From the NCBI RefSeq assembly GCF_058153355.1, contig NZ_CM177019.1: 64,000 nucleotides of DNA; one strand, given 5' to 3'. Positions within the stretch are counted from its first letter, which is position 1, and the number at the start of each line of letters is the position of its first letter. Positions 42,001 to 45,000 of this stretch are shown here, piece by piece. The position numbers are program-made.

Positions 42001-45000
42001 AATTCAGGAGGATAATTCAGGCACCCTTTAGGCCTTCCCGGAGAGGCATTTTTTTGTATATCTGACATTTTTATCACCCACTATTAATTTAGTGGTGGAT
42101 ACTTTGTCCAAAGCATCGGGAATTTGCCAGACGGTCCTGATAAGACGCTTACGAATCTTTTATGAAAGGGAAATCTACATTAACTCTTCTGCTCGCTGGT
42201 ATATTCTCATGCGGCACATGCCAGGCGACAGGGGCAGAAGTGACGAGTGAATCTGTATTTAACATTCTTAATTCCACAGGGGCAGCAACAGATAAAAGTT
42301 ATTTATCGTTAAATCCAGATAAGTATCCTAATTATCGTCTTCTGATTCACTCAGCCAAATTAAAAAATGAAATAAAGAGCCACTATACCAAAGACGAAAT
42401 TCAAGGATTGTTAACATTAACAGAAAACACACGAAAGTTAACGTTGACGGAGAAACCCTGGGGAACGTTTATTCTTGCTTCTACTTTCGAAGATGACAAA
42501 ACAGCGGCAGAAACCCACTATGATGCTGTCTGGCTGAGGGATAGTTTATGGGGCTATATGGCATTAGTATCAGATCAGGAAAATAGGGTAGCTGCAAAAA
42601 AGATTCTGCTCACCCTGTGGGATTATATGTCTACGCCCGACCAGATTAAGCGGATGCAGGACGTCATTAGCAACCCAAAACGACTGGATGGAATTTCCGG
42701 GCAAATGAATGCTGTGCATATCCGATTTGACAGCAACTCCCCCGTGATGGCAGATGTGCAGGAAGAAGGCAAGCCGCAGCTGTGGAACCATAAACAAAAT
42801 GATGCGTTAGGTCTTTATCTTGATCTCCTTATACAAGCAATCGACACTGGTACTATTAACGCTGAAGATTGGGAAAAAGGTGACCGATTAAAATCGATTG
42901 CGCTGTTGGTTGCTTATCTGGATAAAGCCAATTTCTATGTTATGGAAGATTCCGGAGCGTGGGAAGAAGATGCCCGATTAAACACATCTTCCGTTGCACT
43001 GGTGACCTCTGGACTGGAACGTTTGTCAAACCTACTCTCGAAGAAAGACTCTGTTTTTATCTCTGATTTACTACGCGAAGCTAAAGCTAATGAACTGGAT
43101 GAACCTCTTTCAACAACGAGGTTGAACCACCTCATAGATAAAGGTTATGAAAGAATAACGTTACAGCTTGATTTAGGGGGAGAATCCCCAGGTTATCTGG
43201 AAAAAGATAAACATTACAGAGAAGCCGATGCGGCTTTACTTAATGTTATTTATCCTGCAAATCTTTCAAAGATAAATACCAGAAGAAAAGAGCAAGTTCT
43301 AAAAATAGTTAAAAAACTAGCAGGTCCGTATGGTATAAAAAGATACGAGAAGGATAATTATCAGTCGGCAAATTTTTGGTTCAATGATATTAAAACCGAT
43401 ACCGATCAAAATTCATATGCGAAAAGAGAAATGAGCTTCATACCATCAACAGAAGCAGAATGGTTTTTTGACTCATGGTATGCAAAATCAGCAGCAATTG
43501 TTTATAAAGAATCAAGAAAAGAAGAGTATTTGAATGACTCAGTGCAATTTATGAATAGATCATTGGCCCAAATAACAGGCGAGAATATGATTGGTGCAAA
43601 TGGCAGGAGTGTACCTGAAATGGCACTTCCCGAAAGCTATAACTATATCCACAAGTCGGGAACTTTGCATGAAGCGCCAAGCCCTATCATTCCGCTAAAT
43701 TGGTCGAAAGCTTCAATGACTCTCATGTTGAAAGAGATGTCCAACCTTATCAATGATGAGGGAAATAAATAGTTTTCATAATGAGGCGGTCCTGGATTAA
43801 AAGGACCGCTCAAAGAGAAATCGAAAGGGGAGGTAAAAGTGATCAATAAATTACTGTTAGCTTACCTGATAGGTCTGGTTGTGACATCGACTTTAATATT
43901 TATCTTCTCGGAAGAAAAAGTAACATATCGGTTGTTTGCTGCAATAATTACAGGTTTAACCTGGCCGCTTAGTCTCATTCCTTCCATTATAAGTCTCATG
44001 ATTCGTAAATCCGACTAACAAGAAAATTATATGATCGATTAAGAAAAATAGAATCGAACAAGAGAATAAAATATATGCGGGGAGTAACAAAACACTCGCA
44101 GTGCGTTAATGAAGAACTAACAAATATGATTTGTATTGAAAATAGTTACCAAACAAGTGTTATAAGAAATACGAGGTGTGTTTAAGTAAAACATATCAAC
44201 AGTTACAAATCTGTATATGGACAGGATGACGTACAAGTGTAAGTGGCTGATAGCTATTCGCTCATAACAAAATCATTATTTTATAAATAGGAATCATCAC
44301 TTTTTAATCATGTTTTTATAGCAAGTTTATGGAGAATGAGAATATGGAATAAGGAGATGAAACATGATTGAAGAAGGGCTGTTACTTCCAATGAATGTTT
44401 TGCTTCAAGGACAGAAGTTAACCCTACTGGACCCTGAAATGTGGTTCTTACGGGGAAATGAAAACAAGGATGTAACCCTTGTTATTACGATTGGTAATAA
44501 CCATCAAAAATTAATGGTAGTGGAAGACATATTACTGCTCATTGACCGAAGCCAAATTGAGGTAACTGCAGGGAAAGTAATTTATCATCCACTTCGCATT
44601 GATATCCTGAGTAAATTATTAGCTTTTATAGATGAATCAACGGGGAGTGTGGAAAGGGAACACCATGACTTGTTTGCTGATGCCTTGCCCTTTGCATCAG
44701 AAGTTGTGCTATTCAGTAAAGTTGCAAGTGAAGCCTGGTTTTTAGCCACTTATCTGAGCAGCGATAATATTAATGAAATTCTGTTTCAGCATCTAAGAAA
44801 AACAGAATGCTATAAACTGGTTCGCTATTTATTATCGCAATCGCTCATACAGACTTCACTCTATGATCTTGGTGAGCTTTACGGCGTATCGTATTCACAT
44901 TTTCGCCGTTTATGTAGTTATGCATTGGGTGGTAAAGTTAAAACGGAATTATGTGGCTGGAGAGTTGCCAGAGCCGTGTTGGAAATCATTGAAGGAAACA

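Follow-up and report, generated by a model that had tools for sequence, protein, structure and literature searches.

The intact ygeQ/pkgA gene at the edge of an Escherichia coli ETT2 locus: a GH15-like protein, its GhoT/OrtT-like neighbour and a recent IS66-family insertion

The gene found at one end of the locus for type III secretion system 2 of Escherichia coli (ETT2) is known in the ETT2 literature as pkgA, for 'phosphorylase kinase and glucoamylase', and corresponds to ECs3736/ECs3737 in the O157 strain Sakai (PMC3977695) and to EC042_3075 in the enteroaggregative E. coli 042 (PMC2808357). The passages of these two papers that deal with the gene trace its mention at the end of ETT2 to Pallen 2003 and describe it, citing that work, as a putative glucoamylase, with a role as ETT2 effector given as speculation. 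A literature search on its other name, ygeQ, recovered nothing substantive. The neighbouring gene ECs3735 is listed as 'ydcX homologue, inner membrane protein' (PMC3977695). OrtT (YdcX) is an orphan toxin that damages membranes and has neither antitoxin nor partner, and the substitution F38R abolishes the toxicity of GhoT (PMC4344625). Here, both genes were analysed in a window of 64,000 nucleotides (contig NZ_CM177019.1 of the RefSeq assembly GCF_058153355.1; positions refer to this whole stretch), where ygeQ/pkgA is intact and is directly preceded by an insertion sequence (IS) of the IS66 family. The explanation that best joins the observations, to which we give a probability of about 75%, is that ygeQ codes for an intact enzyme of the glycoside hydrolase family 15 (GH15) exported by the Sec pathway, that the small gene behind it is a ghoT-like paralogue, that the two belong to an old cassette travelling with islands of the type of ETT2 or of pathogenicity island 1 from Salmonella (SPI-1), and that the recent IS most likely abolishes ygeQ transcription. 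The gene pair is already known and annotated, and the part specific to this strain is the recent IS66-family insertion. The argument from the signal peptide against the effector idea, the GH15-hairpin-GhoT cassette and its recurrent placement beside SPI-1/ETT2-type genes go beyond the published accounts.

The window belongs to the E. coli chromosome and displays the order xdhABC, actS, glyU, inserted DNA and ETT2, according to the RefSeq annotation of a collinear strain; in addition, megablast found matches with 95-99% identity in 3,989 of the 5,426 complete E. coli genomes. The gene ygeQ/pkgA (42162-43772, + strand) codes for a GH15-family (alpha/alpha)6 glycosidase-like protein. An earlier note on this DNA had reported this open reading frame (ORF) of 536 amino acids, which is indeed present with an ATG start and contains the motifs AVWLRDSLW and AWEEDARLNTSSVAL. 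RefSeq names the homologous genes 'glycoside hydrolase family 15 protein', or ygeQ where they are truncated as in K-12. Downstream, eivF (44364-45113, + strand) codes for an InvF-like regulator of the AraC family (NCBIfam InvF, E 1.9e-54; Pfam HTH_18; RefSeq name 'EivF'). It is the first gene of the inv-like operon of ETT2 and marks the edge of the type III secretion system (T3SS); sctC/eivG starts at 45110. From these two positions, the GH15 and ghoT-like genes therefore lie at the very edge of the T3SS cluster, where the earlier note had placed them.

PkgA is recognized by the Pfam family PF00723 over residues 94-401 (E 2.5e-6), a weak match that passes with 27.1 bits against a gathering cut-off of 22. 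A structure model was obtained with AlphaFold from an alignment of 59 homologues, replacing a single-sequence run with a pLDDT of 33.8. This model (pLDDT 91.9, pTM 0.91, only residues 1-23 disordered with a pLDDT < 50) displays the (alpha/alpha)6-barrel catalytic domain of GH15. A profile sequence search of the PDB at E values up to 10 retrieved only phosphorylase kinase, by its alpha and beta subunits (PhK; E 3e-7 and 1.3e-4), and no classical glucoamylase.

For the comparison of residues, the catalytic-domain sequence of the Aspergillus niger glucoamylase, identical to that of 3EQA, was placed in the family alignment. Twelve of its residues, Y48, W52, R54, D55, W120, W178, E179, E180, R305, D309, Y311 and W317, align to identical residues of PkgA, which are in the same order Y120, W124, R126, D127, W208, W267, E268, E269, R394, D398, Y400 and W406. 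Most of these twelve active-site residues are invariant among the 59 homologues; R126, W267, E268, E269, R394, D398 and also E491 are invariant down to about 39% identity. The GH15 assignment proposed from the sequence alone was confronted with a possible absence of the fold or of the catalytic residues, and it survived with the PF00723 score and the twelve residues shared with A. niger. As modelled, PkgA has the GH15 fold with at least the general acid and the subsite residues present. We propose as general acid E268, in the motif WEE (E179 in A. niger), and as general base E491, in the motif PES. The latter residue, in an invariant LPES, is followed in the model by a beta-hairpin and the motif LNW, to be compared with E400 of A. 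niger (SEQ...LTW). The ratio of nonsynonymous to synonymous substitutions (dN/dS) against Escherichia albertii is about 0.08 for the GH15 gene and about 0.11 for the ghoT-like gene, values that are approximate since dS is near saturation; by this measure both genes are clearly constrained.

Concerning export, a Sec-type signal peptide is predicted at residues 1-23 (42162-42230, + strand). The N-terminus MKGKSTLTLLLAGIFSCGTCQATG begins with a positively charged segment followed by a hydrophobic core with a Kyte-Doolittle maximum of 2.25. It contains the PROSITE-type lipobox LAGIFS-C17 (Cys codon at 42210-42212), with an alternative site for signal peptidase I after CQA23. The signal peptide announced in the earlier note is thus supported by hydropathy and by the lipobox pattern, judged by eye. 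The E. albertii homologue also has Cys17, in a VLAC lipobox. Signal peptides are found in most Gram-negative homologues, some of them with lipoboxes, and in none of the homologues from Clostridiales and Bifidobacterium. From these features, we infer that PkgA is taken across the inner membrane by Sec. The Escherichia protein would probably be a lipoprotein acylated on Cys17, and the Gly at position +2 favours the outer membrane according to the standard Lol rule. The homologues reach 77% identity in E. albertii, 61% in Yersinia enterocolitica and about 52% in Commensalibacter; others come from Elusimicrobiota, Planctomycetota, Synergistaceae, Clostridiales, Bifidobacterium, Bdellovibrionales, Mycoplasmataceae and Saccharibacteria. 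When a plasmid collection was searched by tblastn with P0004, no homologue carried by a plasmid was found; the matches were only chromosomes that had been filed as plasmids.

The small membrane ORF of 59 codons with a GTG start that had been reported behind ygeQ is present at 43839-44018 (+ strand), and its identity can be refined to a member of the GhoT/OrtT family. The hydrophobic protein (59 amino acids, two predicted transmembrane helices, equivalent to ECs3735) matches the Pfam family PF10753 (Toxin_GhoT_OrtT) with an E value of 1.2e-11 and 45.1 bits against a cut-off of 22.1. A Shine-Dalgarno sequence GGGGAGG precedes the gene at 43827-43833. At least 1000 public contigs carry exactly this sequence, where it is named 'GhoT/OrtT family toxin'. 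On the basis of its sequence, this ORF is an ETT2-linked third E. coli paralogue of GhoT and OrtT. PADLOC gave no match for either PkgA or the ghoT-like protein.

The surroundings of ygeQ were compared with the loci of close GH15 homologues (designated below by L numbers), which form six clades 46-65% identical to one another. The ORFs of the GhoT family, often missed by gene finders, were detected with a purpose-built hidden Markov model (HMM). The association of a GH15 gene, a spacer hairpin and a ghoT-like gene recurs in five of the six related clades. A ghoT-like ORF directly follows the GH15 gene on the same strand in E. coli, E. albertii, L012, L048, L049 and L051, at a distance of 46-98 bp that is maintained down to about 49% identity between the GH15 proteins. 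In L011, the ghoT-like ORF lies upstream of the GH15 gene. In L002 (Y. enterocolitica), a ghoT-like pseudogene with an in-frame stop (9696-9857), mis-called as a gene of 24 amino acids, lies downstream. The HMM search revealed no ghoT-like ORF in L009, L010, L050, Commensalibacter or any distant locus; in L010, an IS66 element follows the GH15 gene. In the window, the spacer contains a GC-rich hairpin (43782-43812, + strand; minimum free energy -19.5 kcal/mol, z -3.4) with no clear U-tract, and an Rfam scan of the region 42-45 kb detected no RNA family. Six of the seven lineages folded have a strong hairpin of unrelated sequence at the same position of the spacer (z -2.4 to -4.4). It looks like an attenuator or an RNA stabiliser, set between an enzyme gene that would be well expressed and a small gene that could be harmful.

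The earlier note had called the GH15 gene an unusual neighbour for a T3SS locus. The survey contradicts this point, since the same neighbourhood recurs beside SPI-1/ETT2-type genes in several homologue loci, with differing arrangements. In Escherichia, the cassette is followed by eivF and eivG, and in L012 by hilA-like, iagB, ygeK-like, orgA and prgKJIH genes. The locus L009 (14.7-kb contig of the Logan assembly DRR526056) has prgH just upstream of the GH15 gene. L051 contains hilA-like and iagB genes with a GerE-type regulator, L049 an InvF-like regulator (46% identical to EivF) with a TPR_3 chaperone-like gene, L011 InvH and L010 a hilA-like gene. In addition, L048 and L010 carry Gly_transf_sug and pentapeptide-repeat genes, of a kind found among effectors. 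No T3SS gene was observed within 6-8 kb in the loci of Y. enterocolitica and Commensalibacter. A scan of genome contigs recovered only distant taxa and no Enterobacterales, and it was of no help on the T3SS linkage. These islands are homologous to one another, as illustrated by EprK-like proteins with about 56% identity. The linkage is therefore sufficiently explained by common descent with retention; a functional tie of the cassette to the secretion system is possible.

The IS found before ygeQ (39684-42152, - strand, 2469 bp) was identified with Pfam and its termini, GTAAGCG...CGCTTAC, were read directly. On the - strand, it comprises tnpA (42077-41649; HTH_Tnp_1, 142 amino acids), tnpB (41652-41305; TnpB_IS66, 115 amino acids, E 7e-40) and tnpC (41285-39714; transposase DDE_Tnp_IS66, 523 amino acids, E 4e-104). 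The target-site duplication of 8 bp, GAATCTTT, was read directly at 39676-39683 (left copy) and 42153-42160 (right copy), the latter being followed by a T at 42161 and by the ATG at 42162. Exactly nine bases (42153-42161) separate the IS from the start codon, the distance given in the earlier note. The target site is single-copy in uninterrupted E. coli (...GATGGAATATTTTATG). The presence of tnpA, tnpB, a DDE-type tnpC, terminal inverted repeats and an 8-bp target duplication places the element in the IS66 family. The IS/ygeQ junction is found in none of the 5,426 complete E. coli genomes. A second copy, 100% identical and inverted relative to the first, is located inside the glyU island (26000-28468, + strand), about 11 kb from the ygeQ copy and with its own 8-bp duplication CCTTAACC; it is likely the donor or a sibling of the ygeQ copy. 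An inversion between the two inverted copies was considered and ruled out: each copy is flanked by its own matching duplication, and both are therefore simple insertions. The transposition is recent.

Upstream of the IS, the native glyU-ygeQ intergenic region (39453-39675, + strand), presumed to contain the promoter and the leader of ygeQ, is still recognizable: 230 bp at 39453-39683 are collinear with the 232-bp spacer of the uninterrupted strain R32_14_1F. Blocks in the last 90 bp or so before the ATG are kept in E. albertii, where the remainder of the spacer has diverged. These conserved blocks are now 2.47 kb from ygeQ. The tnpA-proximal end of the IS adjoins ygeQ, so that transcription of the IS genes runs away from this gene, and before the start codon GGA has been altered to CGA. 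A consensus scan by pattern match found no outward (+ strand) sigma-70-like site in the last 120 bp of the IS. The same kind of scan, a pattern match only, detected a terminator-like hairpin followed by a run of seven T (42032-42057, + strand) about 105 bp before the ATG, which would impede read-through into ygeQ. Of the two outcomes envisaged in the earlier note, silencing and transcription derived from the IS, this anatomy makes it most likely that the insertion silences or strongly reduces ygeQ. The ghoT-like gene lies behind the hairpin and has a strong ribosome-binding site of its own, and it could be affected or not. We also considered an upstream in-frame ATG (ATG GAA TCT TTT ATG) as the true start, in which case the IS would split the coding sequence. 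In E. albertii this ATG is followed by an in-frame TGA, and the annotated start was therefore kept.

Taken together, these data suggest that PkgA, a single-domain (alpha/alpha)6 enzyme, would leave the cytoplasm through Sec and would act in the periplasm or at the outer membrane, most likely as an inverting exo-glycosidase on some alpha-glucoside. The GH15 gene, the spacer hairpin and the ghoT-like gene would constitute an old conserved cassette travelling with SPI-1/ETT2-type islands. The recent IS66-family insertion, whose own genes point away from ygeQ, would part this gene from its conserved 5' region, most likely with loss of its transcription. Several points weigh against this interpretation. 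The programs MAFFT, hhalign and HMMER put E491 opposite W417 of A. niger and not opposite its base E400. Moreover, hhalign gives a probability of only 4% against the A. niger glucoamylase, and neither HMMER nor local Smith-Waterman alignment resolves the register of the catalytic base. As these automated alignments mis-register the segment, the assignment of the base rests on the invariant PES motif and on the topology of the hairpin in the model. The lipobox is not conserved outside Escherichia. With regard to silencing, the promoter scans used are consensus matches occurring at background frequency, and in the native upstream region of ygeQ the same scan recognized no promoter. The synteny could reflect inheritance from one ancestral island rather than functional coupling. 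Finally, the first domain (D1) of PhK alpha keeps both catalytic Glu and is yet inactive on maltose, isomaltose and glycogen (PMC10978961).

This last result, together with the fact that PhK alpha and beta are the nearest sequence relatives of PkgA among solved structures, is the argument for considering PkgA as a catalytically silent protein, binding glycans or serving as a scaffold in the manner of the PhK D1 domains. We regard this as unlikely, since the catalytic and subsite -1 residues of GH15, twelve in number, are the same as in the A. niger glucoamylase, and since the seven residues invariant in the 59 homologues and the low dN/dS form the pattern of a working active site. Still less probable is the published speculation, as it appears in the passages of PMC3977695 and PMC2808357 concerned with the gene, that PkgA is a type III effector injected by ETT2 into host cells to manipulate their glycogen metabolism. 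PkgA is a poor fit to a T3SS effector because of its Sec/lipoprotein N-terminus and because the family extends to organisms with no T3SS gene in the flanks of their copies. Substrates of T3SS normally have no Sec signal peptide, and effectors are expected to be restricted to T3SS bearers, whereas a hydrophobic Sec signal peptide or lipobox is present in PkgA and also in the T3SS-linked homologues P0007, P0009, P0010 and P0026. The homologues of Commensalibacter, Elusimicrobiota, Mycoplasmataceae, Saccharibacteria and Bdellovibrionales have no T3SS seen nearby, the Y. enterocolitica copy has no T3SS gene within 8 kb, and eivA (SctV) is frameshifted in the present strain.

What joins the two genes of the cassette is less clear-cut. 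The ghoT-like gene could be an independent orphan toxin or a passenger stabilising the island, its adjacency to the GH15 gene being only inherited linkage. OrtT stands alone without a partner (PMC4344625), the two genes have a hairpin between them, in L009 and L010 the GH15 gene is kept with no ghoT-like gene, the Yersinia copy is pseudogenised, and all the cassette-bearing loci resemble relatives of one island type. On the other hand, the small ORF is intact and under purifying selection, and the same-strand adjacency at 46-98 bp has survived several rearrangements of the surrounding T3SS genes, down to a GH15 identity of about 49%. We consider this explanation a serious contender, somewhat short of even odds. 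A more ambitious proposal would make the cassette one functional unit belonging to the SPI-1/ETT2-type islands, in which the GhoT-family peptide would be, instead of a classical toxin, a holin-like helper controlling the release, localisation or activity of the exported glycosidase, and the enzyme would serve the island, for instance through an action on a periplasmic, envelope or host glycan. The secretion of chitinase assisted by a holin and an endopeptidase in Serratia offers a possible comparison, and we hold this proposal to be doubtful. As for the IS, such elements often create outward or hybrid promoters, and its end could have activated ygeQ or placed it under new control. The native region is AT-rich ETT2 DNA, reported to be repressed by H-NS (PMC11068852), which would favour such an activation. 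We judge it improbable in view of the absence of a + strand sigma-70-like site in the final 120 bp of the IS, the mere 9 bp between its end and the ATG with GGA replaced by CGA, the terminator-like hairpin with its T7 run on the + strand at 42032-42057 and the opposite direction of the IS genes.

Some other features of the locus and of its relatives were observed. In the ETT2 cluster of the window, eivA (SctV export gate; 47956-50015) shows a 1-bp deletion in an A-run at 49362 by comparison with strain R32_14_1F, giving two ORFs of 509 and 208 amino acids; from this frameshift, the ETT2 apparatus is probably non-functional in this strain. The insertion before ygeQ is in keeping with this decay of ETT2. 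In the comparison of E. coli with E. albertii (L007) over 42162-45113, dS is very high for ygeQ (about 2), for the ghoT-like gene and for eivF (about 1.3). Such values exceed the expectation for core genes of these sister species and may point to allelic lineages of old date or to ETT2 having been acquired separately. The contig L009 contains a partial ETT2/SPI-1-like T3SS cluster (hilA-like, iagB, orgA, prgKJIH) with its PkgA homologue, adjoining the F-type partition genes sopA/sopB and a gene coding for a SopD-pentapeptide fusion. Its SopA falls in a 90%-identity cluster with SopA of enterobacterial plasmids, which assigns the locus to an F-type plasmid and points to a plasmid-borne relative of ETT2, as far as the gene content indicates. 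In L050 (1619-9611 of GCA_036745875.1; 47% identity, 56% GC), the PkgA homologue has as direct neighbours opgG- and opgH-like genes and a PF10091 ('Glycoamylase') protein. This hints at a tie with periplasmic glucans, a reading set aside since the case is single and had no recurrence in the other loci.

Between glyU (20707-20780) and the native glyU-ygeQ spacer, the window carries an integrative element of 18.7 kb (20781-39452) that is not found in strain R32_14_1F. It ends with a 17-nt repeat of the 3' end of the tRNA (39436-39452) and codes for a tyrosine integrase (20906-22309), AntA and Ash proteins, a D5-type primase and ProQ/FinO. A SocA/Panacea antitoxin-like gene (38351-38836) overlaps an unassigned ORF of 147 amino acids (38833-39276). 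Rfam matches in this element are int-alpA, isrK and C4 antisense RNA. From this content, it looks like a P4-like satellite or a phage-related island. The D5-like primase is apparently split into D5_N (29149-30189) and Pox_D5 (32108-32833). Between the two halves are found a transposase gene of the IS110 family (30248-31423) and, after it, three perfect tandem copies of a 205-nt unit (31484-32104). In the IS110 region, a stretch of 19 nt (30424-30442, GAATCTTTGTAAACGTCTC) matches at 17 of 19 bases the positions 39676-39694 (GAATCTTTGTAAGCGGCTC), that is, the left target duplication and the first bases of the IS66 end. This may be due to chance or be the trace of another IS66 end.

The gene of the window corresponds to the other E. 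coli YgeQ/PkgA (b2863, a remnant in K-12; ECs3736-ECs3737 in O157 Sakai; EC042_3075) both in identity and in location, with glyU on one side and eivF on the other. Its product, which carries the annotation of a GH15 family protein, shares 96-99% identity with the common E. coli allele. Contrary to the K-12 and Sakai copies, the latter being divided into two ORFs, the gene of the window is full length and intact. It is also alone in being preceded by an IS66-family element, and the extra 18.7-kb island separates it from glyU. The insertion represents one more case of the well-documented mutational attrition of ETT2. The IS itself resembles the ISCro1 group of the IS66 family by its tnpA-tnpB-tnpC organisation, its GTAAGCG termini and its 8-bp duplication. 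The top public matches, annotated 'IS66-like element ISCro1 family', are 97% identical, only over bases 502-2469 (tnpB-tnpC), so that the tnpA-proximal 500 bp or so (41651-42152), which they leave unmatched, are apparently of different origin. This end matches other IS66-like elements, among which a 99% match annotated tnpA, and the IS of the window may be a mosaic IS66-family variant.

The solved GH15 structures (isomaltose glucohydrolase 5Z3A, bacterial glucoamylase 1LF6, A. niger glucoamylase 3EQA, glucodextranase 1ULV and dextran dextrinase 9JU0) share only 13-16% identity with PkgA, which differs from them by some 90 additional residues at the N-terminus, by the greater length of the hairpin that follows the putative base and by a signal peptide. 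The D1 domains of PhK alpha and beta (8JFK) are the closest solved relatives by sequence, but each forms a single domain within a eukaryotic regulatory subunit 1000-1200 residues long, whereas PkgA is bacterial, free-standing and, by its signal peptide, exported. The PkgA family is an uncharacterised branch of GH15 and, among bacteria, the nearest relative of PhK's glucoamylase-like domains. The substrate of PkgA, if found, could inform the question of these domains, which have no known activity. The suggestion made twenty years ago of an effector directed at host glycogen is hard to reconcile with the Sec/lipoprotein signal peptide and with the spread of the family to organisms where no T3SS was seen.

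With GhoT (type V system GhoT/GhoS) and OrtT, whose K-12 sequences were verified as exact, the small protein shares PF10753, a length of about 57-59 amino acids, two hydrophobic helices and the motif G(L/I)TWP(L/M)SL. It differs from both by an additional charged C-terminal tail, RKSD, and from GhoT by an Ile at the position of Phe38 (manual alignment). Unlike the GhoT/GhoS system, where ghoS lies directly upstream, the ORF of the window has no GhoS-type antitoxin gene beside it; its conserved upstream neighbour is the GH15 gene, found upstream in every cassette examined. In being devoid of a ghoS-like neighbour it resembles OrtT, and its conserved pairing with a GH15 gene gives the GhoT 'toxin' family a possible second context.

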